Source of the DNA: Candidatus Omnitrophota bacterium
GTDB taxonomy: Bacteria; Omnitrophota; Gorgyraeia; Zapsychrales; Zapsychraceae
Direction: 5' to 3'
Length of the DNA: 64,000 bases
Assembly (NCBI GenBank): GCA_015233405.1
Contig: JADFXT010000005.1
Coordinates: 74,210 to 138,209 of the forward strand
Positions 1-46,077 of this stretch are shown piece by piece. Both the position numbers and the translations under genes were made by a program. Under the pieces are notes generated by a model. It made no database searches and was not told the origin of the DNA. It worked only from the letters and a program-made list of their open reading frames with translations. Position 1 is the stretch's first letter. Each line of letters opens with the position of its first letter.

Positions 1-207
1 AAGCTTCTGGATTTAATGAGAAAGCATATCGATGAAATTGAGGATTTACATAAAACCAAAAATGCTCACTTTCTAGTCGAAACCGGGGATTTGATTATCT
101 TATGTTTTGAGATTCTTTTAGAAAACGACTGTTCCATCGATGAGACGGTGGAATTATGTTTTAACCGTTATAACAACAAAATCAAACAACTTCTTAAGAA
201 ATCATGA
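1..207 (+). CDS. 3' end of a gene entering from upstream of the window; tentatively MazG-like nucleotide pyrophosphohydrolase C-terminus
   Basis: Frame 1 is open from base 1 (KLLDLMRKH...), so the ATG at 16 is probably internal. ETGDLIILCFEILL...SIDE resembles the E-x-G-D-L helix of MazG-type all-alpha NTP pyrophosphatases. The stop overlaps the next start (ATGA at 204). Confidence 0.35.
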   Translation, partial: KLLDLMRKHIDEIEDLHKTKNAHFLVETGDLIILCFEILLENDCSIDETVELCFNRYNNKIKQLLKKS

Positions 208-776: not shown

Positions 777-791
777 GAAAGGATTTCTTCG

Positions 792-1472: not shown

Positions 1473-1499
1473 CCTTACGAAAAATCGCCAACAAATTCC

Positions 1500-3517: not shown

Positions 3518-3557
3518 TATTTGATAAACGATTCTTTTATTGTAGAATAACACCCAT

Positions 3558-16340: not shown

Positions 16341-17534
16341 ATGGAAAACGTTCTACCCAAAAGACAGAAAAACTTCTTCATCAAAATCGTGTCGACAATT
16401 CTCTCGATCACGTTCATTTCCACAACGGCCGTACCGCCGAGCTATGCACAGGTTTTGAACCTTCCGCAGCCGGGCAGCATGGTGGGCCTCACGCCTGCAT
16501 TTATGCCTACGCTGATCAAGGGCTTAAAAGTCCATCCGGAGAATCCGCTTTTGTTCGATTTCATTCTCGATACCGGTAAATCCGGTATTGGAGTCAACAC
16601 TCCTGAATTCAAGTCCGAATCTGAAAAGCTCATCAAATATTTCCTAGCGTCAATGACGATCAAAGAGTCTGATTTGTGGGTCAACTTGTCACCGTACGAA
16701 AAGAATAGAATCGCGACTGACGAATTAGGCAAGACTGAGCTTGGAAAAGACATGTTGGCGCAGGACTATATTCTAAAGCAATTGACCGCGTCTTTAATGT
16801 ATCCAGAAAAAGAGATCGGGAAAGATTTCTGGAATAAAGTTTACGCTGAAGCGAAACAAAAATTTGGAACCACTGATATTCCTACAGACACGTTTAATAA
16901 AGTCTGGATCGTCGCTGATAAAGCGAAGATTTTTGAACACAACGACGCGGCGTATGTTGTTGGGGCGCATTTAAAGGTCATGCTAGAAAAAGACTACGTA
17001 GCAGCCAGTAAAGCTTCTTCCAGTCATTCCACAATCTCCCCATTGTCATCCCCGCAATCTTTAAGCGGGGATCCAGTAGTGGATTCCCGCCTTCGCGGGA
17101 ATGACATCAGTACTTCGATTATTAAAGAAATAATCATCCCCGCCATCGAAAAAGAAGTCAACGAAGGGAAGAACTTCGCAACATTAAGACAGATGTTCTA
17201 TTCGATGATTTTAGCGACGTGGTACAAGCAGGCGTTAAAAGATGCATTATTAAATCAAGTTTACAGTGACAAAGCTAAAATTGGCGGAGTTACAAATAAC
17301 GACCCAAATATTAAAGAAAAGATTTACGCCCAGTATTTCGAAGCCTTTAAGAAAGGCGCCTACAACTATATTAAAGAAGAATACGATCCTACGACACAGC
17401 AAGTAACACCTAAAAAATATTTCTCCGGCGGTCTTGAAATCGGCGTCGGGAAAGTCCTCGCCCGTCAAGCTATTCAAACCCCGGAAACCGACAACGCCAT
17501 GAAACCAAATGGCGACATGGCGATGGTAACGACA
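16341..17534 (+). other. shared N-terminal domain, copy 1 (~398 aa), ending in a double junction DNAMKPNGDMAMVTT
   Basis: Near-identical protein sequence to 23774-25027 (LPQPGSMV-LTPAFMPTLIKGLKVHPENPLLFDFILDTGKSG…), except for one 40-aa cassette and a 17-aa insertion in copy 2. Confidence 0.85.
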
Positions 17535-20500: not shown

Positions 20501-23500
20501 GATCTCCGCGTTTTCTTCAGACCTGCTGAATAAGCAGAGATCAATGATAGTGAACCGATACAGTGATTCAGTGAATGGGCCTAGGTGGTCTTGGGGTGAC
20601 GACGGCAGCAAAGGCCTTTCGATGGAATCGCGTGAGAACCATAAAGCTACGATACAAGCAGCCCAATCTATCACCAACAAAGAACTTGCTCTGACAGAGA
20701 TTATTAAGAAATCTTCTTTGGCATCTGTCTACATGGGCCAGCGCATTGGGATGAGATACAACTCCCTAGCTGCCCGCGGCGACTTCGCCATGACGACGGA
20801 ACAACCGGAGAACCAATCACGCAGAAATTTTCTTAAGAATAGTGCTGTCATAACGGCCGGATTGCTTGCCGGAAAAGGGATGCTGTTGGCTCAGGCTATT
20901 AAACCCAACCTCCGCCCTGAAGTAAAAAAGACCGTCGAATGGTTAAAGCATAAAATTAATCCCCAGACCGGTCTCATTGCCTCTTTTGAAGGAACTCCTG
21001 CAGGCGACCCTTCAACTGGAGTAACTTGGATGTATAACCAAGCACAAGCTATTGAAGTGTTTTTGTCGATCGGAGATATCAAGACAGCGGAAAGTCTTGC
21101 CAAAGCCATGCTAAAACTTGAAAAACACAACGGTGCATGGGTCGGCGCTTATGATACTCAGTCCGGAAAGATCGCTACAAATATCGACGAGCAAAGACTT
21201 AGCTATGTTGGTTTTAACATGGCTATCGGGCATTCATTTCTAAACCTTTTGGAAAAGACCCAAGACAAGAAATTGGCCATCAATTTGTTGCAAGCTTCTT
21301 TTGGATTGATGCGTTGGATCGCGGGTTATTATCATGATAAGGGAAACTATGGATACTTTTCCGGCGGAGAAAACAAAGCCGCTGTCTGGACGGAATATAA
21401 CGTACGTGCAGCTGCTTTTTATTATCAATTTGCTAACCAGCTTAAAGACCCCAACCATCCGAATAAGAAAGCGATTGAAGAGATCATATCACCTGATAGT
21501 TCAAAACCTTTAAGTGAATCTCTCCGAAAGGATGCAGAGAAGGTTTTCCACTGGGTATCCGGAATGTGGAACAAAAATCAAGGATACTATGAATATGGCT
21601 ACACGGATTCTGTAAAAGAAAAATTGATCCCAGAAGATTGGGGTAATTTTGAAAAGGAAAATCCTAAATATTGGGCGCATGGCATGTGGGCTTATCCCCA
21701 ATATCTTGTTCCTATTATGGCAAGGGTCGCCGGATTAAATCCAAAGGATTATGCCGGAGGGCTCGGTTGGGTCCTCAATCATCAAAGCACGATCGTGGTC
21801 AATAAAAATGGCCAGAAGGTCAATCTTTCCGGCGTGCCACGATGGATCGGTTCGAGATCTATTAATTCGAAATTCACCGGTGAAATGGCGGTTGCCTTGA
21901 GGTTAGTCGGCAGGGACCTTGAAGCCGATAAATTGTTGGCAACATTGACTCAATTACAGACACCTGATGGCGGTATTCCCGAGGCTGTCAGTGATAATCC
22001 TAACGACATGTGGCCGCTCAGCTTTCCCTATGCTTCTGTGGAGGCGTCATTGGCTTATATCATTGGCATGCAGCACTTAGACCCGAGATATATCGCTGGC
22101 ACAACCCAGTTGGCTGGAAACGACGACGCTGCCATGACGACGGCAACGGTCAAAGTTTTGGGAGAAGATATGCCTGCCAGATCAGTCTTGAAAACCATTA
22201 GTGCGTTGCAGCAGGATTTGCTTTTCTCTAATATCACAGACGAGCGCAACACCTTGAATGAATTGGTCTATGGACGGAAGATGATCCGGTTAAATCATTT
22301 CACTCAGCGCGCCAAGGAAAGTCCTGTCGCTGATTATAATTTGTTCCGCGAGCTTGAAAAATTTTTAAAAGATACAGTTTCTTTTGATATTGCGATTTTG
22401 CCCTTAAACGGCACGCCGAGCTTAAATGGATTTCGTCCGGGCTTTTATCTGAATTGGAAGGCCCCCAACGAGAAGATGACTCAAAAAATGATGATGTCCG
22501 CTCAACTATGGCTTCTGAATAAGGCCCTTGAATCTCAGAAGGCTTTAAAAGGGGCCGGGATATCCGACTTCGCGATGACGACGGGGGATAATTCGACTTC
22601 TAGCTGGGAAGAACGACAGCTTGCTTGGGAGGAACGCATCCGACAACGAGACGAAGAAGAGCGACGGAACCAGAGAAGGCACCAAGAAGCGCAAGCGGAT
22701 TATGAAAATCTCGCAATGAATTTGTTTGGAGAAGATGATGCCATGATGACAGGGAACCTAAGAGTGCTGTCATTCATAGGTGCACTGACGGGCAGTTTGC
22801 TTTTTACCGGTCAAGGAATGGCAGCGAACGATCCTTTGGCGAGCTGGATAGATCCGAAAGCCGATTCCATGGAAATTTCGTCGACAAAAATGGGATATTA
22901 TGTAGGACAAACTATACGCCAGGATGGGAACACATACATATGGAATTCAAACGTTAACAAGTACGTTCCTTTGAAAAGAACGCCCAAGAAACCTGCAGCA
23001 GACACTAGCAACACGCATAAAGACACGACTGCTGTTGTGCCTGATAGCAGTAAGAAAGCAAAAGACCAGGCCATGACGGCGGGGGACGACGATTTTGACA
23101 GCTTTTTGCGCGCCAACAGAATGAGAATGGAGACAAACGAAACACGGGAAATCACAGTAAAAAATGTCTTAGGAATACACATGAAACCCTCGAGAGCTAT
23201 CTATCGAGCGGCAGAAGCGTTTGCCAAGCAAGGCGTCTTTGTCGCCATTGAAACTGAAGGAGATTTTGTGAGAATTTATGATGAATCTGAGGCAGAGCTG
23301 ACCATGCATATTCAAGGTTTAGGTATTCAAGATGAACAACCTATAATGGTAACCATAGATAGCAAGAAGAAATTGTCGCCGGAAACGATCAATTTTGTGT
23401 TTGATAGATTAACGTATTTGTTGCAAACTCCGGCATTGCTTGAAAATCCAGAATGGGATACAAACAATGCAACAAAGACTTATTTGGCAGAGATCACGCA

Positions 23501-23774
23501 ATTTCTTGAATCACATGACAAGGCCATGAACGCTGATATGAAGAACCCCGGCGGTATCGACTTAAACGCTAAGAATCTTCAGATGAATATTTCTAAAGAT
23601 GGAAAAGGCGTTGAATTCAAATTCGATCCGGCTATGGTGGAGCAATTTAAACTCGGAGATTTTACAGGCGTGATACCCGTCATCATTCGTATTACGCCAA
23701 TTTCAAGCCCGTTTCCGCTATTAGGATTAGAAATTCCGACGGAACAGGCAATAGAAATATCTAAAAGGTCTTAA
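16341..23774 (+). CDS. giant modular secreted protein 1 (2477 aa): signal peptide + shared N-domain, 8 junction-delimited modules, shared C-domain
   Basis: Uninterrupted 7.4-kb ORF with RBS gaggag upstream. N-terminal signal peptide …TTAVPPSYAQ|V. N- and C-terminal regions are paralogous to the next ORF. The interior is punctuated by D-x-A-M-T-T. Confidence 0.85.
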   Translation: MENVLPKRQKNFFIKIVSTILSITFISTTAVPPSYAQVLNLPQPGSMVGLTPAFMPTLIKGLKVHPENPLLFDFILDTGKSGIGVNTPEFKSESEKLIKYFLASMTIKESDLWVNLSPYEKNRIATDELGKTELGKDMLAQDYILKQLTASLMYPEKEIGKDFWNKVYAEAKQKFGTTDIPTDTFNKVWIVADKAKIFEHNDAAYVVGAHLKVMLEKDYVAASKASSSHSTISPLSSPQSLSGDPVVDSRLRGNDISTSIIKEIIIPAIEKEVNEGKNFATLRQMFYSMILATWYKQALKDALLNQVYSDKAKIGGVTNNDPNIKEKIYAQYFEAFKKGAYNYIKEEYDPTTQQVTPKKYFSGGLEIGVGKVLARQAIQTPETDNAMKPNGDMAMVTTNIHNLKQIKADVKKNQEMKKKNNKKRGLYSALSDVKFLGGDSAVVKKAFNGNVSARQELVDSARYRFAIDGISRRNWAGEVLSTFARSGHVWAQNAIVRDAKDDSDDDMRWAKFALFDSAKHGWDWAIKQVAILSGDDEEFREVISKKLNSDNRGSQEEVEEILIQAIRNGQVWAKDLVTENIVSRHEYVGIHVAAETYEFFSKTQQKKIYPKIKSYSDELNKLNKRLQGLEKQGKSLDRAMTTLLVIPASESAHMTLKELFDLLQEGIKKNQDRGVTEAEGKYQGMNFKVVMDTTLGEDYEKSFRPRFEEKLKKNDIQKDKAMTTERKSTWDQVKAFTPGTVDWHIRHLFPQFSAKGKIRAIKILSRIYEKNNPKQQARIAQALFEVAGNKDSSVSQAAVDAIASKLKVTGIEDPLKQLLNGLRNQAGVDVGKDRLLTTADAQIKIKAFVASMKGLLIAPFVNNSTMATLAEFANNVEKDVYSAKTRADWKRISERLAQDKSRITGFIEAIAGREPQSVFSYDNFLKEQLRKEMYTAFQGIISEAGEAMDRPTNAILINASERSLQNNPLRLSLLPGEGVVLNVSSHAWQGYYRHHSFLLSADKDGNLLASPFKLPSFLSKDYDGRTRQMDYETFYDSFQIYLPHGLTLWHSDGFSEDADAGIIHNQGPTGANLAIDKNGKDLLLSVGDYTSSPGSLSAGVNSIVLPKEKEIVLGNGTDVVHVTLDKEKTKEVQMGGDTVVLEEKDDYVLVSSHIKDGTIWAGVVDEGTPDEILAALDKGEQWALDILDRDLAKNANLEKVAYILDAGIQNNRDWAKKRIIGRDLNGQYRLQQVVKDRYYSGGAEGKFSWLKDVIIENAKLPGNDWAKEIVFGKEDSQLMRLENLLIDARKNAQSAQSFSEKIRHVILNGHDDSDYVVMGMAMADAYAGLTWMVNPMIEWLQDNFDNRERLDVAVAVVFSLLPPEVREKIFKDLEQTDPKGLSSLRRVISAFSSDLLNKQRSMIVNRYSDSVNGPRWSWGDDGSKGLSMESRENHKATIQAAQSITNKELALTEIIKKSSLASVYMGQRIGMRYNSLAARGDFAMTTEQPENQSRRNFLKNSAVITAGLLAGKGMLLAQAIKPNLRPEVKKTVEWLKHKINPQTGLIASFEGTPAGDPSTGVTWMYNQAQAIEVFLSIGDIKTAESLAKAMLKLEKHNGAWVGAYDTQSGKIATNIDEQRLSYVGFNMAIGHSFLNLLEKTQDKKLAINLLQASFGLMRWIAGYYHDKGNYGYFSGGENKAAVWTEYNVRAAAFYYQFANQLKDPNHPNKKAIEEIISPDSSKPLSESLRKDAEKVFHWVSGMWNKNQGYYEYGYTDSVKEKLIPEDWGNFEKENPKYWAHGMWAYPQYLVPIMARVAGLNPKDYAGGLGWVLNHQSTIVVNKNGQKVNLSGVPRWIGSRSINSKFTGEMAVALRLVGRDLEADKLLATLTQLQTPDGGIPEAVSDNPNDMWPLSFPYASVEASLAYIIGMQHLDPRYIAGTTQLAGNDDAAMTTATVKVLGEDMPARSVLKTISALQQDLLFSNITDERNTLNELVYGRKMIRLNHFTQRAKESPVADYNLFRELEKFLKDTVSFDIAILPLNGTPSLNGFRPGFYLNWKAPNEKMTQKMMMSAQLWLLNKALESQKALKGAGISDFAMTTGDNSTSSWEERQLAWEERIRQRDEEERRNQRRHQEAQADYENLAMNLFGEDDAMMTGNLRVLSFIGALTGSLLFTGQGMAANDPLASWIDPKADSMEISSTKMGYYVGQTIRQDGNTYIWNSNVNKYVPLKRTPKKPAADTSNTHKDTTAVVPDSSKKAKDQAMTAGDDDFDSFLRANRMRMETNETREITVKNVLGIHMKPSRAIYRAAEAFAKQGVFVAIETEGDFVRIYDESEAELTMHIQGLGIQDEQPIMVTIDSKKKLSPETINFVFDRLTYLLQTPALLENPEWDTNNATKTYLAEITQFLESHDKAMNADMKNPGGIDLNAKNLQMNISKDGKGVEFKFDPAMVEQFKLGDFTGVIPVIIRITPISSPFPLLGLEIPTEQAIEISKRS
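17045..17105. repeat. GC-rich double-hairpin palindromic element (type A), inserted in frame in giant gene 1
   Basis: GTCAT-CCCCGC-aatctttaa-GCGGGGAT…ATTCCCGC-cttc-GCGGGAAT-GAC: two hairpins bracketed by GTCAT/ATGAC. Translated as …SSPQSLSGDPVVDSRLRGND…. Related arms recur at 56113-56204. Confidence 0.75.
20790..22133 (+). other. module with canonical Tat signal peptide followed by an alpha-helical-repeat (possibly alpha/alpha-toroid, glycosidase-like) domain
   Basis: Starts at the junction Met: MTTEQPENQSRRNFLKNSAVITAGLLAGKGMLLAQA|IKP. This has the S-R-R-x-F-L-K motif, an h-region and A-x-A. The assignment of the mature part is by helix-repeat pattern only. Confidence 0.6.
22743..23072 (+). 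other. module starting with a Sec-type signal peptide
   Basis: Junction Met, then MMTGNLRVLSFIGALTGSLLFTGQGMA|AND. Confidence 0.5.
23073..23525 (+). other. module containing an HPr-like (PTS phosphocarrier fold) domain
   Basis: EITVKNVLGIHMKPSRAIYRAAEAF… parallels the HPr active-site segment (G-[IL]-H-A-R-P-A, His15 retained). …LTMHIQGLGIQDEQPIMVTIDS parallels the HPr LG-x-x-x-G-x-x-[IV] strand. The Ser46 equivalent is not conserved. Confidence 0.45.
23526..23771 (+). other. shared C-terminal domain, copy 1 (82 aa)
   Basis: MNADMKNPGGIDLNAKNLQMNISKDGKGVEFKFDPAMVEQFKLGDFTGVIPVIIRITPISSPFPLLGLEIP… is paralogous to 34193-34426. Confidence 0.8.
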
Positions 23775-25027
23775 TGAAAAATAACATCAATAAACATATT
23801 ATTTCACAGAGGCAAACGGTAAAAAGAATCATTTCCGCGGCTATTCTTGTCGCGTTTATATTCACAACTGTTATACCGCCGAGCTATGCACAAGTTATGA
23901 ACCCCGCCGCGATTGGCGGCGAGGCCTCGCCAACTTCACTGGTTGGCGGGTTGCCGCAGCCGGGCAGCATGGTGGACTTAACGCCTGCGTTTATGCCTAC
24001 GCTCATCAAGGGCTTAAAAGTCCATCCGGAGAATCCGCTTTTGTTTGATTTCATTCTCGATACCGGTAAATCTGGCATTGGAGTCAACACTCCTGAATTC
24101 AAATCCGAATCCGAAAAGCTCATCAAATATTTCTTAGCGTCCATGACGATCAAAGAATCCGATCTTTGGGTTAACTTGTCTCCGTACGAAAAGAATAGAA
24201 TTGCGACTGATGAATTAGGTAAAACAGAGCTTGGCCGTGACATGCTCGCGCAAGATTATATTCTCAAACAGCTCACGGCCTCGCTTATGTATCCAGAAAA
24301 GGAAATCGGAAAAGATTTTTGGAATAAAGTTTACGCTGAAGCGAAACAGAAATTTGGAACTACTGATATTCCTACGGACACGTTTAATAAAGTCTGGATC
24401 GTCGCAGATAAAGCAAAAATTTTCGAACACAACGATGCAGCCTATGTTGTCGGGGCGCATCTTAAAGTAATGTTGGAAGAGGATTACGAAGCGCTCAAAG
24501 CGAGCGCGGAGTCCCGAGCTACTGCGAGGGATTTGGCGGCTTCACATAATGTAGGGGCGGGGTTTCCCCGCCCTGATCATAAAGGGCGCGGTAACCGCGC
24601 CCCTACGGCGATCATCAAAAAAATCATCATCCCCGCCATCGAAAAAGAAGTCAACGAAGGAAAGAATTTCGCGACGCTTCGCCAGATGTTCTATTCGATG
24701 ATTTTAGCTACTTGGTATAAACAAGCCTTAAAAGATGCACTTTTAAATCAAGTTTACAGTGACAAAGCTAAAATTGGCGGAGTTACAAATAACGACCCAA
24801 ATATTAAAGAAAAGATTTACGCCCAGTATCTCGAAGCCTTTAAGAAAGGCGCCTACAACTATATTAAAGAAGAATACGATCCTACGACACAGCAAGTAAC
24901 ACCTAAAAAATATTTCTCCGGCGGTCTTGAAATCGGCGTCGGGAAAGTCCTCGCCCGTCAAGCTATTCAAACCCCGGAAACCGACAACGCCATGAAACCA
25001 AATGGCGACATGGCCATGGTGACGACC
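23774..25027 (+). other. shared N-terminal domain, copy 2 (~418 aa)
   Basis: Paralogous to 16341-17534, with an extra MNPAAIGGEASPTSLVGG after the signal peptide. Ends DNAMKPNGDMAMVTT. Confidence 0.85.
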
Positions 25028-28000
25028 AAGTTGGATAAAAATATCGACCGTGCTATGACCTCAATGGAAAGACGCGAGTTCCTTAGCGCCTTAGGTGGGC
25101 TTGTTACGGCAGGTGCGGTTTTGGGTGGTGGTGGATTTTTGGTTTACAAAGGGGTGCGTGCGGTAGACAAGATAGCGAAGCAGGAAGAAGAAAAATTTTC
25201 AAAGGAGTGGAATGAATTTGTTAAGACCCCTGAAGGGCTTAGGATCCAGAAGATGGTGGATGCATATTGGGCGGAGATCAAAATGCCCTATTATCGAGGA
25301 ATCCCAGACTTGAAGGAATATAGAGGGAAGCTGGCGGCGGCAACGATCATCACCGATAAAAAAATAACCACTCTTGTGGATGCTTTCCGCTATACATCCA
25401 GTGCCATAAGTATGTTAGGGACCCCTCTGCTTGACGACAAGCTGAGCACTCGAATGGCCATGGTTTCGGTATCGTCCGGCAAGGATATAGGGTTATTTGT
25501 AAAGGCCTATCAATATATAGACGATAAGAACACCAACAGCACTCTGGGCCTCCACCAAGAGTCGATGGTGGATATAGCGGTTGCTGCAGTCACAACAGGT
25601 AAAGACACCCAGGCTTTTCTCAATGCATACAGGTTTATGAAAAGCTATGATAAATTTCGGGCTGCATCCGGTGAGTCATCGGCGGTGCAAAGAGCGATTA
25701 CCGCGGTCACAACAGGAAAAGACCTGGAGGCATTTGCCAAAGCGTTCGAGTACATGACAAACTATAATAATGTTGGAACTAATATTAATGACGAATTGGC
25801 GGCGCAGATGGCGGTTGCAGTAGTCGCAACGGACAAAGCCCCCGAGGCATTGGCCAAGGCGTTCAGGTATATAAAAAACACTGGGCTCAGCGATGAATTA
25901 GCGGCGCAGATGGCGGTTGTTGCAGTCACAACGGGCAAAGATCCTGAAGCATTTGCCAAAGCGTTTAGGTATTCAAAAGACAACGTGCCGCCCGATTTTC
26001 TTATCAGTGATGAAATAGCGGCAGAGCTGGCGGTTGTTGCAGTCACAACGGGCAAAGACATAGCGGATTTTGTAATGGTTTTTCAATATATGAAAGGATA
26101 CGAGAATGGAACCAGCCCTCTTAGTGACGAATTAGCGACGCGGATGGCTATTGCCGCGATCCTCTCAGGCAAGAATAAAAAGGCCTTTGTGGAGGCCTTC
26201 AAGTATTTGCAGGACGGCGAAAACCAGCTGTTCTATCTCAACGATGAAGGCCGCGTACAGATGGCTATCGCCTCCGTCGTTACAGGCAAGAACATAAAAG
26301 CATTTGCGACTGCATACCGATATGTGAATGATCAAGTGGGGAGCCATGGCATCCTAGATGATGGTTTGCTGATCGTACGAATGGTCATTGTCGGGATGGC
26401 CCCCGAATTCTTTAACAAAGATCTTACTGGCGTAGATTCACTTAACGAATCGTTAGGCCCTGTGGCAGGAAGCATTCTTGGTGCTGTTTTTCTTGGAATG
26501 CCAGTGCTAGGAGCTATTCTAGGTGGCGGTTCTCTTGGCGGGGCAGCCATCGGGTATTTGATCGCGGGCCCGATTGGCGCGCTTTTGGGAGCTATATTAT
26601 TGGCGGATGATTATAAGGAGAGACCTGATAATTGGAGCGATCTGGCTAATCTTCATGCTCTCCAGAAGGTAACGGCGAGTCCGGCCACGCGTAGCGTTAA
26701 TGCTGATAAAGCCATGGGCGCCGAGTTGTCCGACCACGCTATGGTCACGCCAGGCCTAAATAGTTACTTCAATTACTCGGAAAAATTGAAAATATCAGGC
26801 GGGGACCTTGAGACATTGGCCCAAAAGTTCGCACTATATTTAGATAAAGTCGTAAATAACAAATACAGAAAAATGCCTTATCGATACTTGCCAGATCAAT
26901 GGCAAAAACGATTAAATGGCATCAACGAATTCTTGCTACGCACGCCGTTATACCAAGGGAAACTTCAAGACGGAAGTCCAATCTATCAATATATGATCGT
27001 ACCTCTTTTTAACCTTAACGGCGTTAAATCGATTGGCGCGATGATTGAGCCTGGTGATGGTCGGTCTTCTCCGCATCACTATATTTATTTAGGGATAGAG
27101 CCATATCTTTTAAGCGTCGAAGACCCCAAGATCCTTATCAATGCCGTGCTTGATCAAATTAAGGTCAACCAAAATGATTCTTCATCTTATAAGGCCTGGA
27201 GAAATTATTATACCCAAGGGCTTTTAAGTGAAGTTGAAGAAGCCGACAAGGCCATGACGGCGGATAGGGAAAAGGATGCGACAACAGAGGTCCTCACACA
27301 AGAAGATCTAAATGAGTTGATCCGCCTCATAGACGAACACGATGATATCCGTTTTGACACGAGTAATGCGGTAAAGGCGATAGAATTGCGTCAGCCTGAA
27401 ATTGTTACGCGCTTTGAAAGGGATTTGGATGAGAACAGAAGGTGGTTAGCACAGGCGGTAGTTGAAGGCCTTTTGAATAATAAAGAATGGGCCCGCAAAG
27501 CTGTGGCCGAGCATGGCCTTATGAATCAATCTAATTTTCGAGAGATTTTAGATAGTGCGCTTGATATGAGAAAAGTGGAGGCCCTGAAAGTTTATTTGTG
27601 GAACAGACAATGGTTTGTTGATGTGGTTGTGCAGGAAGTCAAAGCGTCCCCAAAAGGGGCACAAGACTTTCTATACAAACTCTTGGAGGATAATAATCAT
27701 GGAGACAACTGTTTCTGGGCTTGGGAGGCCGTACTTGCTTTGGCACGAGAAGGAAATGCTTGGGCAAAGGACACTCTTTTTTCTTGGGCAAAAAGTTACT
27801 CGACATCATCTTATTATTCCCCAGAAGATTTAGCCATAAAAATGGCCAGACAGATAATATTGATGGAAGCCTATGCCGGTCAGTCATGGGTAGGTGATTT
27901 AAAAGATGTGTCGGATGTCATAAAGAATGAAAAGGCACCTGAACATCCTATTTTGCGAGAAAGATCAGAGGGCATAAGCCCGACGATCTTTGAGTCATTT

Positions 28001-31000
28001 ATGGCACCTGAGCTTCATATTTCGCCCGAAGAGTCAGAGTATTATTTTAAGGCCCTTGGCGTGACAAAGGCGTCATACAATGTTTTGCAAAAGGCCATAA
28101 ACAAGACAATGCCTGATGCTATAAACAAGGCGATGTCTGAGGAAAGGGAAAAGGCCACAAAGATACAAAGATGGCAAAACAAAATCAGCAAGAAAAAAGC
28201 GCTGGAGTTTGAAAATACGATAAAAAAACGTGCGATGAAGGACGTCGGCATACAAGCACAGGTCATGAAGGAAGTGATGAATCACTCTTCTTTGGCCGTC
28301 ATTATGATAGCGAGACAAAACATAGAAGACTATGCCCAAAAAGATAATCGTGGTAACGAAAGGGGATTTGGAGATTATGTTGGAGGACATTATGGTGGAG
28401 GATATCGTGAAGGAAATTCTGATGAAGGAAGCCGCACTTCGAGTGGAGACTCTGGTTGGTCTATAACAGGCTTGGGTGGACTTTTAAATCCTGCCAATCC
28501 TCTGAGTCCTTTGAGTCCATTGAATATGATGGACCTTGCCATGACGGCTGATGCCAATTTAACCGAGACTGATGTCGTCCGCGTCGCGGGCAATGAAGGG
28601 TCTTTTGAAGCGGAATATCATGAGAAGCCAACGGTCGTCGTGCTGGCGCCGGGAAGAGCCAATGGGGATGGAGAGCATGTCGATTACCCCACATTTAGAA
28701 TCTATACAAGTCCCGACGGCTCAGCCACCATCATTCCGCACAATTATTCCGCGCCGATCGCCATTCAAAACAATATTTTAATCTCGGCCAAACCCAGGAC
28801 CGATAATAAAATCGTGGCTTGGGCGAAAGATTACAAAACCAGATATGAATTTGATCTCAATGATTTAGAAAAATTGACGAAATCCGACAGTTTAAAAGGT
28901 GATAAATTCTGGGCGAATTATTTACTTGGAGCTTATCAAATCGCTAAAAATCAAGGCCGTTCATTTAAAGGCGCGGAATTTGTCATAGAAGGAAATGTCC
29001 CAACGTCCGGCGGCGTATCTTCCTCGTCGGCTTATAGTGTTGCTTTAAGCATTGCGTTCTCGCAAATGTTTGGTTGGAATTTACATAACAGCAAAGTCGG
29101 GAAAGTCGAATTAGCTTTGTTTGCCCGCGATGCCGAACGTTCAGAGTTGGTTGGTTCAAGCTGCGGATATCTGGACCAATTAGCGTCGATCTTCGGGAAG
29201 AAGGACCATATCACGTTGATCGATTACGGCGAAGTTCCTGTTTTCCTCGAAAAACTGGAGAAAGGTTTAGCTACCGATGCCGACGTCGACCGATTAATTC
29301 AAAATATCTCTATGAAGCCGGTCTTGGATAAAGGCTATAAGTTTATGTTGTTTAACAGTAACGTCGAGCGTCCCGCTGGAGGACTTGGCGCGACCAATTA
29401 TAATGTCCGGGCAGATTATGAATTACCGGAGGGGGGAAGAATATTATCCGCGTTACTGGGGACTGCCTGGGCGCCACATGTCAGTGCGTATACATTGGCT
29501 GATTTAGAACGCGTAAAATCGCAATGGCCGACGGGTGATTATACTTATGTGGATAAAAGAGATGGCAAGACATACACCGTCAGCTACGCGACGATCTTTA
29601 AACGTGTCCGTTATGTCTTAGGTGAGAAAGAACGAACCTTGGCCTTTATCGCAGCGGCCAAAGTTGGAGATGTTGAAGCTATGATGCGGGCGCTTAATGC
29701 AACTGGCGACGGGCTAATGATGGACGGTGATTTTCAAATCAGCGCTTATGTGGATAAAGACGGAAACGTCTTGGACGACACCTTGGACATATTAGTGAAG
29801 GTTTTACGTGAAAACGGGGCAGCAGCCCGCATGATGGGCGGCGGGGGCGGCGGCTCTGTTATCCTTTTGGTGAAGAAAGAATTTGATACGCCCGAATGGC
29901 GCCAGAAGATCATCGACGAAGTTAAGCTACGCAGCAAGACCCATAAAGTCGTATCTGTTATCGGCGACGTCATCGCCTCCGAAGGCGCGCGGGTCGTCAA
30001 AGAATCCCCTGATAAAGCTATGGTAGCAGAAACTCAGGTGGAGACGTTTTTTGATCTCCCCGTTGATATAGAAAATGTTGGGGACATCTTAAATGATATC
30101 CTTCAAGAAAAAGGCAAAAAATCTTGGACGGGCTTGGCAAAAGAAGCTCTTAACCAACCTCAAAAAGAAAAAAAATCCTCTGCATTTTCTCTTCTTTATA
30201 TACAAAGAAGAGATGGGAGAAGGGAAAGCATCCCTTTAAGCAGCAACTTTCTCATCCGAATGGCATTAAAAAAAGTTATATCTAAAATATTGGACAAATA
30301 TGCTTCCCGACATGAAAAAAGAAGATTTCATATCGCCGTCTATAAAGAACCTGGAGAAAATGGATATTTTGATTTAGTTATAGTCCCACAAGAGCCATTT
30401 GTTTTTCCGGAACCTCAAGTCCTGAATTTTATGCGGAATACTTTTGTCACTAAATGGCTTGATGAAAATGGCAATCGACTATTGTTCATTGATTCTCTAA
30501 AATATAATTTAAAGAAAGCAAAAGCTCCACGAGCAGATCATCCAGAAGAGATTGTCTCTTTTATTCAGAAAACATTCGATGGCCGTGTTCCTGTTAAGCT
30601 TAATGAAAGCAATAATTTTGTATTTGGCGACGAGAATTTATCCCTGGAAGTGAATTCAGATTCTTATGCAAAAGACTTTTCCCCTAAACTTGAATCTGCG
30701 ATTGAGCAAGCGTTGGAAGCTCATAGGGAATTTGAATCCATTTCCGGACTACTCACCTATTCCGATAATGCGATGTTGACTCATAGATTCACGAGTTTTT
30801 TGACAAAACCATTCTTATTAATGGCCTTAGCATCAACTTTGGGAGCAGCGCCGAGTTTGAATGATTTGAACTTAAAGAAACAGGTCAATCCGCTTGAACA
30901 ATTAAGCAATGAAGATTTACGTAGACAAACGAACCTGCGAAAAGATGCAAATATTTTCTTTGAAGTAGCCCGACGCGCTTCTCAATATAAAGACAGCAGC

Positions 31001-34000
31001 TCTTACGACCTGCTGAATAAAGAAGCCCTTGAATATCCCGGCGCCATCGTAGCCTTAGATACTATTGCAAATAGCGGACAATATTTTGCAGAGGATGCTA
31101 AAAACACTTTAGAAATGTTATCTATTGAACATTACAAAAAAATCCTTCTTCTTCCATTTCAATTAATCAGCGAAGAGGCCAAAGAAGAATATATTTATGG
31201 TCTAGGGATCCTTGTGTCTTATGATAACCTGGATGCTTATCAATTTTTAATGGGGCACGAGATCTTCTTAAAAAATTTAGCTGCCCGGTCGATCGTCTAC
31301 CAATATCATCAACGGCATCCTAAGGCCCCTTGGATGATATATTTTAATAATAATTCGGCAAAAATTGATTCGACCACAAAATCTGACAAAGCCATGATGT
31401 CCGGCAATGCCTTAACGCCATTCGGGATATTGGTATTCTTAGCATCTTATTTTAATCTACCCAGCAATTCTTATGCCTCTGGCTCTGGTGGTGGGGTTGT
31501 CAACGCTCCTTTAACAGTAACGACAGGACAGACAACATCTTCCGTCGATATGAGTCGAACGAAACATTTTATTCTGAAGCAAAAAACGGCTTCTGCTTTA
31601 ATTGGTGGAGGAGAAAAGATTGTTTCTCAATTGATCAAACTCGCCTTACGCAATGACATCGCCATGAGCGAATTAATTGTCATTGCAGGAGAGAAGAACA
31701 ATCCCGAAGCCGAAGCTGCCAAAAAATTTCTAGACACCATAAATTTCCAAATGATTAGAAATGCTCAAGACCCGACGGCAGATAAAAGAGCCCAGGATAA
31801 AAATTTTAAGAAAATTTTATCCCTTCTTGCTGGTTATGGACGCGCAGATGCTTTAACAAATTTATATTTCTCCGCTCGCGCCAATGACCTTTATTCCCTT
31901 TCTCTTATAGAAAACCTTGCTTACCAGGGCAATCATACAGCTTTTACGACGTTAACCTGGTTAATCACCAAGTATTCCCAGTTGGCTGCCGTAGTTGCCT
32001 TAAGGGGAATGTCTTTTGCCCCGGATAATAAATTTACAAATAAAGGCATTAAATCGGACGCTATCGAATTCTTAAATAACAATGAAGCTCTTATAGAAAA
32101 GATAGAATCCACACCGCCCCAATCGCAATCCGCAATTGATAAAGCCATGACGACAGAAAAATCAAAGGACCTTCTTGATGTCTTACAACAGATTGGCACA
32201 CTTAAAGAAAATGACGTCGACACATTTGTAAATTTATACCCACCCGATCAGCAGCTTGACATAAGAAATTTAATTAAACGCGCCAGAAATGTCAGCACTT
32301 TCGGGGTAAGTTACATTTTGCAAGAGGTAGAGAAATCATTGAAAACAGAAGAAGAACGCAGCGAATTCGAATTAAAGCTCCGCGGCGTCTTAGAAGCTGC
32401 CCATGAAATCCAAAAAGAGAATTTCATCAGGACATCCAATGGGGTTGATTTAAAAAATGTTGATATCTTAAAGATTGACGCTGCTGCAGAAGAAAGAATT
32501 CAGCTGATTCTTAAAATCATCGCGAATCCTTTAGATCCAAGACGAGAAGACACGCTTAATCGTTTGTTTATAGCCCCGATGGAGACTGTCTATTTATTAA
32601 AAGAAGCCAGAATATGGGATGCGGACCATCAGACTCATGTTGAAACAGCAATCAGAAATGCATTGTTATCCATCAAAAGCATATTTCCTATAATCGCAAA
32701 CCCTCGTCATCCGCGGAATCAAGATGCTCTGAATTTTTTAAGGGAAAGCTACTTAAGAAAGAAAACCGATGAGATTCTAAAATTAGCACAAGAATGGGAT
32801 ATCGCGGTTCCCGGATATCATGTCGAGCAAAAAATTGCAGAAGCTTTTAAATTAAAAAATAAGGCTGATCAGAAGACAGACTCCGCCATGACAGCAAAGG
32901 TCGTTGCCGACGTCTGGAATTTGGCAAAAGAGATGCCTTATTCATTTGTCAGTCCATATAATAAAATCTCCTTATCGAGGCCGCACGGATTTACCAATGC
33001 CTATCCTCAGGCCGTTACTCGATTTTCAGAAGATCAAAAAACTTTTTATATCCGTTTTAGCGGTTCTGCGCCAGGACTGGATTTAGAGTCGGATGCGACA
33101 TATTTGATCGAAAAGATGAGGGAGATTCTTCCGTCCGATTATGAACTTGCTTTTTATGTTCCTTCCAATATTTCTAAAGAGGCTTCTCATCAGACTCTTG
33201 AAATTTCTGTCAAAGCTCCTGCCGACCAAGCGATGACGACGGAATTGAACACCACGACGCCAGTCTTTAGAGCGGATGCTGTTAAACAACAAGCTTCCTT
33301 TAATTATGGTGTTGGCATTTATTCGTATCCAAGCGCCCTAGCCAAAGTTAAATATTTTAAAGGTTTAGATGAAAGATTGCGTCCGTTGTGGCAGGCTTTA
33401 AAAAATATTGCACAAGACTTTCCCGATGCCGTCGATGTTCCTGAATTGGGAGAACTTCATTTTACAATGACATCTCGACCAACAGATATTCATGGCCGAC
33501 CCTTTAAAGAAAATCCGTCTATTTTAATTCAACCGTTTACCCCAGAAGAATTAGCAAAATATATGCAGGAAGCAAAAGAAGCTTTGAATATAGCGAACCC
33601 GAATCCTTTTTCATCCCAACAGTTAAAAGGTTCCTTAACGAGAATCCCGGCGGGAGTAATTTATTGGACGATAGATAAAGGAAGCCCGTTTGATACGTGG
33701 GTAAACAGCTTGCGACAAGGTTTTAATAACAGCGCGTGGAGCATCTATGAACCAGGTACCAAAAACTTCTTTAAAGTTACCATGACCTTATTCCGCATAA
33801 AAAATAAAAATCTGCCAGACACCGTCTTAAATGAGATTGATGCCCGCGCTGCTAAAGTCATTGCAGAATTTGCTCCTGAAGGGAATCTTTCATTCCAGGG
33901 TCCGTTTTATTTAAATGACGTTGAAGTGGGGCAAGGGTTTTATGTCAATTGGCAACCTGTGAATGTCGAACGTATTTCTTTACAGACGACGCCTACGAAA

Positions 34001-34429
34001 GAGACTGCTTGGGCAAAAGGAGATCAGAAAGCCCTTGAATATTTCCGTCAGCTTCAAACAGGCGAAGTTAAAGAATTAGCTATTGAACGAATCGCCCGAG
34101 GGCCGGAGTTTGGGTTAAGCGCTCATCGAGCTTTGCAGGAATGGTATAAACAAGGAATGCCAAAAAATATTTCCGAAACAACAGACAAGGCGATGGCGAC
34201 CCCCGGCGGTATTGACTTAAATGCGAAAAACCTCGACATGAATGTGTCCAAGGAAGGGAACGGCATTGAGATAAAGTTTGACCCGGCGATGGTGGAACAG
34301 TTTAAGCGCGGAGATTTTTCCGGGATCGTGCCCGTCATTATCCGTATTACTCCTATCGAAAGTCCGTTTCCGCTTCTCGGTTTAGAAGTCCCTCGAGAAA
34401 AGGCGATAGAGGTCTCTAAGAAATCCTAA
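23774..34429 (+). CDS. giant modular secreted protein 2 (3551 aa): signal peptide + shared N-domain, 12 junction-delimited modules, shared C-domain
   Basis: Uninterrupted 10.7-kb ORF. Its ATG overlaps the stop of gene 1 (TAATG at 23772-23776). Signal peptide …TTVIPPSYAQ|V. Termini are shared with gene 1. Confidence 0.85.
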   Translation: MKNNINKHIISQRQTVKRIISAAILVAFIFTTVIPPSYAQVMNPAAIGGEASPTSLVGGLPQPGSMVDLTPAFMPTLIKGLKVHPENPLLFDFILDTGKSGIGVNTPEFKSESEKLIKYFLASMTIKESDLWVNLSPYEKNRIATDELGKTELGRDMLAQDYILKQLTASLMYPEKEIGKDFWNKVYAEAKQKFGTTDIPTDTFNKVWIVADKAKIFEHNDAAYVVGAHLKVMLEEDYEALKASAESRATARDLAASHNVGAGFPRPDHKGRGNRAPTAIIKKIIIPAIEKEVNEGKNFATLRQMFYSMILATWYKQALKDALLNQVYSDKAKIGGVTNNDPNIKEKIYAQYLEAFKKGAYNYIKEEYDPTTQQVTPKKYFSGGLEIGVGKVLARQAIQTPETDNAMKPNGDMAMVTTKLDKNIDRAMTSMERREFLSALGGLVTAGAVLGGGGFLVYKGVRAVDKIAKQEEEKFSKEWNEFVKTPEGLRIQKMVDAYWAEIKMPYYRGIPDLKEYRGKLAAATIITDKKITTLVDAFRYTSSAISMLGTPLLDDKLSTRMAMVSVSSGKDIGLFVKAYQYIDDKNTNSTLGLHQESMVDIAVAAVTTGKDTQAFLNAYRFMKSYDKFRAASGESSAVQRAITAVTTGKDLEAFAKAFEYMTNYNNVGTNINDELAAQMAVAVVATDKAPEALAKAFRYIKNTGLSDELAAQMAVVAVTTGKDPEAFAKAFRYSKDNVPPDFLISDEIAAELAVVAVTTGKDIADFVMVFQYMKGYENGTSPLSDELATRMAIAAILSGKNKKAFVEAFKYLQDGENQLFYLNDEGRVQMAIASVVTGKNIKAFATAYRYVNDQVGSHGILDDGLLIVRMVIVGMAPEFFNKDLTGVDSLNESLGPVAGSILGAVFLGMPVLGAILGGGSLGGAAIGYLIAGPIGALLGAILLADDYKERPDNWSDLANLHALQKVTASPATRSVNADKAMGAELSDHAMVTPGLNSYFNYSEKLKISGGDLETLAQKFALYLDKVVNNKYRKMPYRYLPDQWQKRLNGINEFLLRTPLYQGKLQDGSPIYQYMIVPLFNLNGVKSIGAMIEPGDGRSSPHHYIYLGIEPYLLSVEDPKILINAVLDQIKVNQNDSSSYKAWRNYYTQGLLSEVEEADKAMTADREKDATTEVLTQEDLNELIRLIDEHDDIRFDTSNAVKAIELRQPEIVTRFERDLDENRRWLAQAVVEGLLNNKEWARKAVAEHGLMNQSNFREILDSALDMRKVEALKVYLWNRQWFVDVVVQEVKASPKGAQDFLYKLLEDNNHGDNCFWAWEAVLALAREGNAWAKDTLFSWAKSYSTSSYYSPEDLAIKMARQIILMEAYAGQSWVGDLKDVSDVIKNEKAPEHPILRERSEGISPTIFESFMAPELHISPEESEYYFKALGVTKASYNVLQKAINKTMPDAINKAMSEEREKATKIQRWQNKISKKKALEFENTIKKRAMKDVGIQAQVMKEVMNHSSLAVIMIARQNIEDYAQKDNRGNERGFGDYVGGHYGGGYREGNSDEGSRTSSGDSGWSITGLGGLLNPANPLSPLSPLNMMDLAMTADANLTETDVVRVAGNEGSFEAEYHEKPTVVVLAPGRANGDGEHVDYPTFRIYTSPDGSATIIPHNYSAPIAIQNNILISAKPRTDNKIVAWAKDYKTRYEFDLNDLEKLTKSDSLKGDKFWANYLLGAYQIAKNQGRSFKGAEFVIEGNVPTSGGVSSSSAYSVALSIAFSQMFGWNLHNSKVGKVELALFARDAERSELVGSSCGYLDQLASIFGKKDHITLIDYGEVPVFLEKLEKGLATDADVDRLIQNISMKPVLDKGYKFMLFNSNVERPAGGLGATNYNVRADYELPEGGRILSALLGTAWAPHVSAYTLADLERVKSQWPTGDYTYVDKRDGKTYTVSYATIFKRVRYVLGEKERTLAFIAAAKVGDVEAMMRALNATGDGLMMDGDFQISAYVDKDGNVLDDTLDILVKVLRENGAAARMMGGGGGGSVILLVKKEFDTPEWRQKIIDEVKLRSKTHKVVSVIGDVIASEGARVVKESPDKAMVAETQVETFFDLPVDIENVGDILNDILQEKGKKSWTGLAKEALNQPQKEKKSSAFSLLYIQRRDGRRESIPLSSNFLIRMALKKVISKILDKYASRHEKRRFHIAVYKEPGENGYFDLVIVPQEPFVFPEPQVLNFMRNTFVTKWLDENGNRLLFIDSLKYNLKKAKAPRADHPEEIVSFIQKTFDGRVPVKLNESNNFVFGDENLSLEVNSDSYAKDFSPKLESAIEQALEAHREFESISGLLTYSDNAMLTHRFTSFLTKPFLLMALASTLGAAPSLNDLNLKKQVNPLEQLSNEDLRRQTNLRKDANIFFEVARRASQYKDSSSYDLLNKEALEYPGAIVALDTIANSGQYFAEDAKNTLEMLSIEHYKKILLLPFQLISEEAKEEYIYGLGILVSYDNLDAYQFLMGHEIFLKNLAARSIVYQYHQRHPKAPWMIYFNNNSAKIDSTTKSDKAMMSGNALTPFGILVFLASYFNLPSNSYASGSGGGVVNAPLTVTTGQTTSSVDMSRTKHFILKQKTASALIGGGEKIVSQLIKLALRNDIAMSELIVIAGEKNNPEAEAAKKFLDTINFQMIRNAQDPTADKRAQDKNFKKILSLLAGYGRADALTNLYFSARANDLYSLSLIENLAYQGNHTAFTTLTWLITKYSQLAAVVALRGMSFAPDNKFTNKGIKSDAIEFLNNNEALIEKIESTPPQSQSAIDKAMTTEKSKDLLDVLQQIGTLKENDVDTFVNLYPPDQQLDIRNLIKRARNVSTFGVSYILQEVEKSLKTEEERSEFELKLRGVLEAAHEIQKENFIRTSNGVDLKNVDILKIDAAAEERIQLILKIIANPLDPRREDTLNRLFIAPMETVYLLKEARIWDADHQTHVETAIRNALLSIKSIFPIIANPRHPRNQDALNFLRESYLRKKTDEILKLAQEWDIAVPGYHVEQKIAEAFKLKNKADQKTDSAMTAKVVADVWNLAKEMPYSFVSPYNKISLSRPHGFTNAYPQAVTRFSEDQKTFYIRFSGSAPGLDLESDATYLIEKMREILPSDYELAFYVPSNISKEASHQTLEISVKAPADQAMTTELNTTTPVFRADAVKQQASFNYGVGIYSYPSALAKVKYFKGLDERLRPLWQALKNIAQDFPDAVDVPELGELHFTMTSRPTDIHGRPFKENPSILIQPFTPEELAKYMQEAKEALNIANPNPFSSQQLKGSLTRIPAGVIYWTIDKGSPFDTWVNSLRQGFNNSAWSIYEPGTKNFFKVTMTLFRIKNKNLPDTVLNEIDARAAKVIAEFAPEGNLSFQGPFYLNDVEVGQGFYVNWQPVNVERISLQTTPTKETAWAKGDQKALEYFRQLQTGEVKELAIERIARGPEFGLSAHRALQEWYKQGMPKNISETTDKAMATPGGIDLNAKNLDMNVSKEGNGIEIKFDPAMVEQFKRGDFSGIVPVIIRITPIESPFPLLGLEVPREKAIEVSKKS
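24551..24606. repeat. GC-rich double-hairpin palindromic element (type B), inserted in frame in giant gene 2
   Basis: GTAGG-GGCGGGG-ttt-CCCCGCC-ctgatcataaa-GGGCGCGG-taa-CCGCGCCC-CTAC: two hairpins bracketed by GTAGGGG/CCCCTAC. Translated as …VGAGFPRPDHKGRGNRAPT…. Confidence 0.75.
25055..26713 (+). other. module: Tat-like signal/TM start, ~8 degenerate ~35-40-aa repeats, glycine-zipper hydrophobic tail
   Basis: MTSMERREFLSALGGLVTAGAVLGGGG. Repeats of the form (D/S)ELAAQMAVVAVTTGKD-x-x-AFAKAFRY. Tail GPVAGSILGAVFLGMPVLGAILGGGSLGGAAIGYLIAGPIGALLGAILL. Confidence 0.6.
28541..30019 (+). other. galactokinase-like GHMP kinase module
   Basis: GRANGDGEHVDY (galactokinase signature G-R-x-N-x-x-G-E-H-x-D-Y). 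PTSGGVSSSSAYSVAL (GHMP P-x-G-x-G-[LV]-S-S-S-A). ERSELVGSSCGYLDQ (V-G-x-x-C-G-x-M-D-Q). RMMGGGGGGSVILLV (motif 3). Confidence 0.75.
30773..31393 (+). other. module starting with a Sec-type signal-like segment
   Basis: Junction Met, then MLTHRFTSFLTKPFLLMALASTLGAAPS. Confidence 0.4.
31394..32146 (+). other. module starting with a Sec-type signal-like segment
   Basis: Junction Met, then MMSGNALTPFGILVFLASYFNLPSNSYA|SGSGGG. Confidence 0.4.
34193..34426 (+). other. shared C-terminal domain, copy 2 (78 aa)
   Basis: MATPGGIDLNAKNLDMNVSKEGNGIEIKFDPAMVEQFKRGDFSGIVPVIIRITPIESPFPLLGLEVP…. Confidence 0.8.
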
Positions 34430-45910: not shown

Positions 45911-46077
45911 AATGAGTAATTACATTATCATAATAATTTTAATAAATCAAATATTGCGAATTTTAAATAAAACCCCAAAATAGATGTTATTTTCTTTAAA
46001 AAAACGTTGATTTTATAGGGCTTTCGAGCTATTGTTTTCATAACTTGACATTTTTCCACAATCCTCACTTTTTAACT

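Follow-up and report, generated by a model that had tools for sequence, protein, structure and literature searches.

A singleton repeat of about 39 residues, predicted to form helical hairpins and joined to glycine-zipper helices, in a junction-delimited cassette of a giant Omnitrophota protein

Long proteins of the phylum Omnitrophota have been described as giant proteins (10.1101/2023.11.21.568195) and under the name 'multi-enzyme metabolic cluster' (10.64898/2026.06.07.730766). They combine unrelated Pfam families, Pfam-dark stretches and transmembrane (TM) helices in one polypeptide, and they carry many such helices (10.64898/2026.06.07.730766). It was proposed that Omnitrophota live as predators or parasites, with long proteins that act at the surface of target cells (PMC10066038; 10.1101/2023.11.21.568195). 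The cleavage points of the giant proteins were stated to be unknown by West-Roberts et al. (10.1101/2023.11.21.568195), and a search by term of the two preprints (10.64898/2026.06.07.730766; 10.1101/2023.11.21.568195) found no mention of linker, conserved motif or polyprotein. Here, we have analyzed a stretch of 64,000 nucleotides (hereafter the window) from a Candidatus Omnitrophica metagenome-assembled genome (MAG), located on a contig of 145,861 bp (JADFXT010000005.1), and in particular a repeat module within p2, the second of two adjacent giant paralogues (p1 and p2). The p1/p2 family shows the same mixture of unrelated families, dark stretches and TM helices as the long proteins described in this phylum, and sugar kinases, phosphoglucomutase and response regulators are common to both. 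However, p1 (2477 amino acids, aa) and p2 (3551 aa) are shorter than members of the 'multi-enzyme' class, which have 10,000 aa or more.

Several described systems resemble parts of the module or its host. Left-handed helical-hairpin solenoids, such as the designed toroids 5byo and 4yxx, mTERF (3n7q) and TAL effectors (3ugm and 6jw4), are built, as is predicted for the module, from two-helix units of about 30-40 aa with a short loop, and the G-K that follows the first helix in the GGK of TAL effector (TALE) repeats is likewise conserved in the module. On the other hand, no sequence or profile similarity to these solenoids was found, and the global TM-scores of the single-sequence models are low (0.2-0.46). 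TALE-like repeats are 33-35 aa long (PMC4787788, PMC7445789) and polymorphic at the base-specifying loop residue (PMC4787788), whereas the module has a period of 39 aa, a loop residue that is not polymorphic, and membrane helices flanking the domain. Glycine-zipper domains (PF13488 and, in lipoproteins of the SlyB/YfgH type, the '2TM glycine zipper') contain adjacent Gly-rich hydrophobic helices with repeated GxxxG, as does the tail of the module, and the hairpins of SlyB and YfgH are seated in the membrane and oligomerize (10.64898/2026.06.08.730324, 10.64898/2025.12.22.696046). Unlike in SlyB and YfgH, the hairpin of the module lies C-terminal to a predicted solenoid of 350 aa inside a protein of 3551 aa, and there is no lipobox. 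MARTX-type toxins and viral polyproteins provide an analogy that is limited to the host protein, since they also have conserved termini, variable unrelated modules and a short recurring junction. In contrast to MARTX, no RTX repeats, cysteine protease domain or other protease could be detected in p1 and p2 by Pfam and NCBIfam, their cargo resembles housekeeping enzymes rather than toxins, and cleavage at their recurring D-x-A-M junctions is only putative.

The module is a self-contained cassette of 554 aa (aa 428-981 of p2; window 25055-26716) that is bounded by two D-x-A-M junctions. It represents a new, so far singleton, repeat of about 39 aa, predicted to form helical hairpins and joined to glycine-zipper membrane helices, and we favor the reading, with a probability of roughly 0.5, that it is a membrane-anchored alpha-solenoid scaffold serving as one hypervariable cargo cassette of an Omnitrophota-specific head-cargo-tail protein family. 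The original prediction, which was made from the DNA letters and their translations, had given an extent of 25430-26620; this was too short, as the module is marked by the D-R-A-M and D-K-A-M junctions listed in Table 1. It had also counted about eight repeats with a period of 33-45 aa. All eight repeat peptides quoted there are present in the open reading frame (ORF) at 23774-34429 on the + strand and the array is real, but the units are nine in number (aa 506-856, about 39 residues each), the additional and more degenerate one (aa 506-546, ...RGKLAAATIITDKKITTLVDAFRY...) being upstream of the other eight. Their start-to-start spacing was measured as 41, 40, 39, 39, 34, 39, 39 and 39 aa, that is, 34-41 aa and mostly 39. 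In a leave-one-out test, each unit was scored with a profile hidden Markov model (HMM) of the other eight and compared with 2000 shuffles per unit. Scores of the nine units were between 19 and 70 bits, the best shuffle did not exceed 15.4 bits, and none of the 2000 reached the real score for any unit.

A gap-free alignment of nine 41-aa units (A1) gave the consensus ..L.DE.A..MA.AAV.TGKD..AF..AFRY. One Ala and the loop Lys were invariant (9/9 units), the residue before G/D-K in the loop was T in seven units and S in two, and the core residues A, F and Y together with the loop G-K were conserved throughout. At the DNA level, six in-register copies could be recognized (starting at 25556, 25673, 25790, 25892, 26009 and 26126, with a spacing of 117 or 102 nt), which were 60-81% identical to the reference copy at 25790. 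The three DNA units previously reported as clearly alike (about 25791, 25891 and 26008) correspond to this reference and to the copies at 25892 (81%) and 26009 (64%). Tandem Repeats Finder (TRF) found no tandem DNA repeat at its thresholds; the repetition is one of the protein, and the DNA encoding it has diverged. When the repeat cores were compared, the mean proportion of synonymous differences (pS) was 0.70, which is near saturation, and that of nonsynonymous differences (pN) was 0.31, while the closest pair (repeats 5 and 6) had a pS of 0.42, a pN of 0.10 and a dN/dS of 0.16. The near-saturated pS and low pN indicate that the repeats are old and have been kept by selection on the protein rather than produced by a recent DNA slip. 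Thus, the repeat set is under purifying selection.

The structure of the module was predicted, as had been proposed with the original prediction, in two single-sequence AlphaFold2 (AF2) runs, one for the whole module (mean predicted local distance difference test score, pLDDT, 54.5) and one for aa 505-885 (mean pLDDT 69.0). Both runs gave the same unit for repeats 2-9 (pLDDT 65-92): a helix of 14 residues, a three-residue T-G-K loop, a second helix of 12-17 residues and a connector of 5-8 residues. In these models, which are of moderate confidence, the units appear to stack into an alpha-solenoid; the membrane segments were predicted with no confidence (pLDDT <50). Foldseek searches against PDB produced an identical ranking for the two models, with designed toroids first, followed by mTERF and then by TAL effectors. 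The best match was the designed left-handed alpha/alpha toroid 5byo (E 3e-5 to 4e-5, TM-score 0.34-0.46). E-values were 0.05-0.09 for mTERF and 0.07-0.12 for TAL effectors (3ugm, 6jw4 and 6jw5; TM-score 0.2-0.39, the query being a single-sequence model).

Three hydrophobic segments with a Kyte-Doolittle (KD) hydropathy of 1.7-2.1 could be identified in the 554-aa module, and otherwise only weak peaks inside the repeats. The first is the helix ALGGLVTAGAVLGGGGFLV (aa 439-458). The module N-terminus reads as a twin-arginine (Tat)-like signal, as had been suggested before, or as a signal anchor. Of that suggestion, the RRxFL motif and the Gly-rich h-region stand; the score against TIGR01409, however, was 14.7 bits (E = 0.03), below the cut-off of 16.7 bits, and 427 residues of the ORF precede the start. 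Within the 3551 aa, the motif has its first residue at aa 432, four residues past the D-x-A-M junction, and would be N-terminal only if this junction were cut or served as a start. There is no Cys, and hence no lipobox, in the module start MTSMERREFLSALGGLVTAGAVLGGGGFLVYKG. The other two segments form the Gly-rich GxxxG tail, which is present as originally quoted (aa 895-943) and has two hydrophobic peaks, with 19-aa KD maxima of 2.06 and 2.09. It contains 14 Gly in 50 residues and is enriched in GxxxG pairs (7 vs 3.5 in composition-preserving shuffles, P = 0.017); for the pattern [GAS]xxx[GAS]xxx[GAS], the numbers were 8 vs 4.5 (P = 0.07). The proposal that this tail is of the kind seen in membrane-inserting or pore-forming peptides was neither supported nor refuted, its matches to Gly-zipper_Omp (E = 2.6) and Bacteriocin_IIc (E = 4.3) not being significant.

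Table 1. Features of the repeat cassette and its host ORF (window coordinates; aa numbering of p2)
Feature	aa	Window	Strand	Description
Host ORF p2	1-3551	23774..34429	+	3551 aa; NCBI MBF0522343.1, HQL24_04715, Candidatus Omnitrophica MAG
Upstream junction	425-428	25046..25057	+	D425-R-A-M428, GAC CGT GCT ATG; module start
Module N-terminus	428-458	25055..25147	+	MTSMERREFLS, then Gly-rich hydrophobic helix ALGGLVTAGAVLGGGGFLV; KD maximum 1.71
Charged helical linker	459-505	25148..25288	+	From first hydrophobic helix to repeats; AF2 helices of low confidence
Repeat 1	506-546	25289..25411	+	Most degenerate, ...KLAAATIITDKKITTLVDAFRY...; leave-one-out 19.0 bits vs <=9.2 in shuffles; HMM domain 1
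Repeat 2	547-586	25412..25531	+	...TRMAMVSVSSGKDIGLFVKAYQY...
Repeat 3	587-625	25532..25648	+	...VDIAVAAVTTGKDTQAFLNAYRF...
Repeat 4	626-664	25649..25765	+	...VQRAITAVTTGKDLEAFAKAFEY...
Repeat 5	665-698	25766..25867	+	Short 34-aa unit, ...AQMAVAVVATDKAPEALAKAFRY...
Repeat 6	699-737	25868..25984	+	Nearest to consensus, SDELAAQMAVVAVTTGKDPEAFAKAFRY; DNA 81% identical to repeat 5
Repeat 7	738-776	25985..26101	+	...AELAVVAVTTGKDIADFVMVFQY...
Repeat 8	777-815	26102..26218	+	...TRMAIAAILSGKNKKAFVEAFKY...
Repeat 9	816-856	26219..26341	+	...VQMAIASVVTGKNIKAFATAYRY...
Degenerate half-repeat and linker	857-892	26342..26449	+	...DDGLLIVRMVIVGMAPEFFNKDLTGVDSLNE; seen in sequence; low AF2 confidence
Gly-zipper tail	893-945	26450..26608	+	Adjacent pair of hydrophobic helices at about aa 893-915 and aa 920-945
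Polar C-terminal linker		26609..26716	+	DDYKERPDNW...; ends in downstream junction D978-K-A-M981, 26705-26716

To date, no relative of the module has been found. With the whole module as query, a word-seeded search returned none among 5.8 billion clusters, the repeat profile A1 matched none of the same clusters, and an exhaustive phmmer search of 1.84 billion representative proteins retrieved only the protein itself. Degenerate-pattern scans of GTDB genomes and JGI metagenomes gave pattern matches, none of which was confirmed by tblastn, and no relative came up in local HMM searches, which covered 79 related Omnitrophota loci as well as the remainder of the window. Pfam scans of the module and, separately, of its repeat block, tail and N-terminus produced only sub-threshold noise, for example FtsZ_C, EcoR124_C and GatB_Yqey; nothing above noise was obtained for the module with NCBIfam and PADLOC, and neither the module nor the repeat profile had a meaningful match among PDB sequences. 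The original prediction could not name the repeat family, and this still holds, nothing in Pfam, NCBIfam or PDB sequences being significant. The whole of p2 is annotated as 'hypothetical protein' (exact match to MBF0522343.1) and forms a singleton cluster. The best relatives of its head domain are only 60-65% identical, meaning that the lineage is thinly sampled, and this partly accounts for the orphan status of the module.

Several known families were considered as candidates and rejected. With regard to TALE membership, hhalign gave a probability of 0.14% (E = 0.41) against TALE repeats, and neither TALE nor mTERF chains appeared in the PDB profile search even at E <= 10, despite the numerous repeats that these chains contain. 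The spacing is 34-41 aa rather than 33-35 aa, and at the loop position that would specify a base, each of the nine units has T or S rather than a polymorphic residue. For HEAT and PBS-lyase HEAT-like repeats, no HEAT model appeared at E <= 10 in Pfam, and hhalign against the HEAT-like repeats of the related locus L032 gave 0.13%. The tail alone scored 8.5 bits (cut-off 25 bits) with Gly-zipper_Omp (PF13488), no other glycine-zipper model appearing at E <= 10, and 7.8 bits (cut-off 27.1 bits) with Bacteriocin_IIc (PF10439). A class II bacteriocin was also rejected on the ground that the segment is internal to a 554-aa module and is not a leader-plus-peptide gene, and a SlyB-like 2TM glycine-zipper lipoprotein on the ground that the module start lacks the lipobox Cys.

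Around the module, p2 has a head/variable cargo/tail architecture that was overlooked in the first reading. It consists of a conserved N-terminal head of about 400 aa, about 14 unrelated cargo modules split by D-x-A-M, and a conserved GGIDL tail of about 60 aa; its N-terminus is a Sec-type signal. The paralogue p1 is an ORF of 2,477 aa (16341-23774) directly upstream, and the heads of the two proteins (first ~400 aa) are 85% identical. The stop codon TAA of p1 and the ATG of p2 overlap by one base (TAATG) at window 23774, and from this overlap the two giant paralogues are probably translationally coupled. The family head (~390 aa after the signal-like helix) matched 1453 proteins at E <= 1e-3 (best 2e-143), almost all of them named Omnitrophota/Omnitrophica, and had 536 genomic matches; no Pfam or NCBIfam model and, in a search with a head profile, no PDB sequence matched the family. 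Family members share an N-terminal signal-like helix and the head, followed by D/E-x-A-M and variable cargo and often by a tail of about 60 aa (PGGIDLN...FDPAM...PVI). The last 46 aa of p1 and p2 match ORFs in 32 of the 79 related loci, and the tail was also found in proteins P0010, P0074 and P0113.

The D-x-A-M motif, usually followed by T/V and then T/A, occurs at 11 sites in p1 and 16 in p2. In 91 family ORFs from the 79 loci, D.AM was observed 191 times against 14.8 expected (13-fold), whereas in the other ORFs of those loci, used as a control, it was observed 45 times against 28 expected. Synonymous codons vary at the junction D and A; thus, the motif is conserved at the protein level. 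The median length from junction to junction was 201 aa. Cargo is hypervariable: apart from the head and tail, only one p1/p2 module had a relative in the 79 loci, a weak match in one locus. Identifiable cargo looks like whole cytoplasmic proteins, and that of relatives includes response regulator, methyltransferase, ankyrin, hexokinase, phosphoglucomutase, aldose epimerase, Maf, NDK and sigma-54 activator as well as many helix-turn-helix (HTH) proteins. Of 86 family ORFs, 28 had TM-like segments in their cargo. An order of junction or head, TM helix and helical repeats recurs in L032 (300-2906), which has HEAT-like repeats, and in protein P0049, which has ankyrin repeats; L077 (2387-6562) carries a Tat-like SRRNFL motif and a TM helix. 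The design of these three is that of the module studied here, with unrelated repeats. A Gly-zipper hairpin like the module tail was found in no other family ORF sampled.

Additional cassettes of p1 and p2 could be described. A full-length galactokinase-like cassette (GHMP_kinases_N/C; TIGR00131 E = 4e-38) occupies aa 1590-2082 of p2 (window 28541-30019), and an HPr-like domain is present as a junction-delimited cassette at aa 2268-2341 of p1 (window 23142-23363). Both of the proteins that carry these cassettes start with a Sec-type signal peptide. At aa 1493-1511 of p1 (window 20817-20873), a twin-arginine signal was found that scores over the TIGR01409 cut-off (17.3 bits for the whole protein and 23.3 bits for the excised start). 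It lies about 1,490 residues inside p1, about nine residues past a D-F-A-M junction, ends in A-Q-A, and has the appearance of an intact N-terminus from an exported protein that was once separate. Sec-signal-like starts are also seen right after junctions at window 22743-22830, 30773-30860 and 31394-31480 (MMTGNLRVLSFIGALTGSLLFTGQGMAAND, MLTHRFTSFLTKPFLLMALASTLGAAPS and MMSGNALTPFGILVFLASYFNLPSNSYASG, respectively). Signal-like hydrophobic stretches at module starts showed an enrichment of only about twofold (7.9% vs 3.9%), and the idea that modules generally begin with a signal-like stretch was therefore rejected as a general rule.

According to the favored reading, the nine units, each comprising a helix of about 14 aa, a tight T-G-K loop and a helix of about 12-17 aa, would stack as a solenoid whose loops may present a nearly invariant ladder of Thr/Ser-Gly-Lys-Asp. 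This solenoid would sit between the N-terminal Gly-rich helix, which follows RRxFL, and the C-terminal hairpin of two GxxxG-rich helices. The three Gly-rich helices would anchor it at a membrane and would probably pack or oligomerize via small-xxx-small contacts, and the solenoid may be a scaffold that binds a partner protein or a repetitive, possibly anionic, ligand. The host is built, like other family members, of a signal peptide and head, of unrelated cassettes that vary in number and are joined by D-x-A-M, and of the GGIDL tail. Several observations weigh against this scaffold. The geometry and handedness of the superhelix are uncertain because the AF2 models are single-sequence ones with the modest mean pLDDT values given above, and the lack of a homologue means that neither a cross-species map of residue conservation nor a transfer of function is available. 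The positive-inside rule gives an ambiguous result around the first hydrophobic helix, and the N-terminal Sec-type signal of the host makes it ambiguous whether the helices belong in a membrane of the producer or of a target. Moreover, the repeat region is about neutral (41 K+R vs 45 D+E), which disfavors a polyanion binder. The feature itself is real and well delimited; its function is constrained, and the assignment is one that we infer.

Glycine zippers typically occur in several channel-forming peptides and toxins. The hairpin of the module, possibly together with the N-terminal Gly-rich helix, might thus insert in the membrane of a prey or host and oligomerize into a channel, with the solenoid targeting or solubilizing this membrane-damaging effector. 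The enriched GxxxG spacing of the tail would suit such a role, as would the Sec-type signal of the host, by which cargo may leave the cytoplasm, and the predatory or parasitic lifestyle with surface-acting long proteins proposed for Omnitrophota. We nevertheless consider it unlikely: no glycine-zipper, bacteriocin or toxin model matched significantly, PADLOC gave nothing, and neither a double-glycine leader nor an immunity gene or toxin-like neighbor was seen, the Pfam-matched neighbors being ordinary chromosomal genes. In addition, most family cargo consists of cytoplasmic-type enzymes and regulators and not of toxins, and two adjacent hydrophobic helices of 20-25 aa fit an ordinary TM hairpin anchor equally well. 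A nucleic-acid-binding solenoid of the TALE/mTERF type, in which each T-G-K-D loop would contact one nucleotide or phosphate, is very improbable. It is true that mTERF and TAL effectors were the nearest natural folds in both Foldseek runs, that QVVAIAS-xx-GGKQALE and QMAVVAV-TT-GKDPEAF are alike in a register which hhalign also picks, and that every loop has the invariant Lys. However, the profile comparisons with these families described above were negative, the repeat length (39 aa, range 34-41) and nearly constant loop residue (T in seven, S in two) differ from theirs, TM-scores were only 0.2-0.4, membrane helices flank the domain, and its net charge is close to neutral.

A helical hairpin amplified in tandem could also have yielded a functionless spacer or linker, the hydrophobic helices then being membrane passes of an uncleaved, giant multi-pass protein. 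Cargo modules of the family are hypervariable, almost no p1/p2 modules being shared with the 79 related loci, the module is a singleton in all databases searched, and the many TM helices of long Omnitrophota proteins (10.64898/2026.06.07.730766) would agree with such passes. This explanation is doubtful in view of the motif being kept while pS approached saturation (pN 0.31, with a dN/dS of 0.16 in the closest pair), of the conservation of the loop G-K, including its invariant K, and of the core A, F and Y in all nine units, and of the junction motif framing the module just as it frames whole enzymes such as the galactokinase module. Also tentative is the possibility that the module is released as its own protein. 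The D-x-A-M-(T/V)-(T/A) motifs would then be processing sites or internal starts that yield about 14 proteins, and RRxFL would act as a Tat signal or anchor exporting the folded solenoid, which would be tail-anchored by the glycine-zipper hairpin. It is in favor of such a polyprotein that the junction motif frames units of whole-protein size and that some of them start with Tat or Sec signals of N-terminal type, which are hard to explain internally, whereas no protease domain of Pfam or NCBIfam was matched in p1 and p2 and the enrichment of signal-like starts behind junctions is only about twofold. Shine-Dalgarno (SD)-like motifs were found at 2 of 22 junction ATGs and are likewise rare at true gene starts here (8/30).

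The D-x-A-M junctions, as possible processing sites, are a more interesting lead than a pore-forming tail. If the polyprotein reading were true, Omnitrophota would encode operon-like 'gene trains' without stop codons, and the junction motif would supply the cleavage map that prior work on their giant proteins called missing. Giant ORFs that are unreadable as such would become lists of discrete proteins, and the long-standing question of whether the giant proteins of Omnitrophota function intact or as separate pieces would be directly testable. On its own, the module helps to annotate the Pfam-dark parts of Omnitrophota long proteins, and its real value is that of a well-delimited example of the cassette structure: a cassette that opens four residues before RRxFL and ends at the next D-x-A-M is what would be expected if whole proteins with their signals were strung in one frame.

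We also scanned the neighboring ORFs with Pfam. Nearly all belong to ordinary chromosomal families, including glycogen phosphorylase, PilZ protein, hybrid histidine kinase, HAD hydrolase, MutY-like glycosylase, glycosyltransferases, citrate synthase and fumarase. A few had no confident Pfam match, among them a 458-aa ORF just downstream of p2 and an 870-aa ORF at 46045, and no tRNA or Rfam RNA was found in the window. Loose SD-like motifs precede 8 of 30 gene starts of the whole window, the upstream regions being A/T-rich instead, and from this the organism seems to rely little on SD-led initiation. Finally, base composition changes inside p2. Near window ~30000, at the D-K-A-M junction (30011-30022) that closes the galactokinase module, the GC content drops from 0.47 to 0.36 and the GC skew from about +0.13 to about 0. 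The block of high GC content and positive skew (~17.6-30.0 kb) comprises the p1 cargo and the 5' cargo of p2, the repeat module included, and the genome flanking it has a GC content of ~0.39-0.40. This compositional break points to a mosaic origin or to recombination at a junction.

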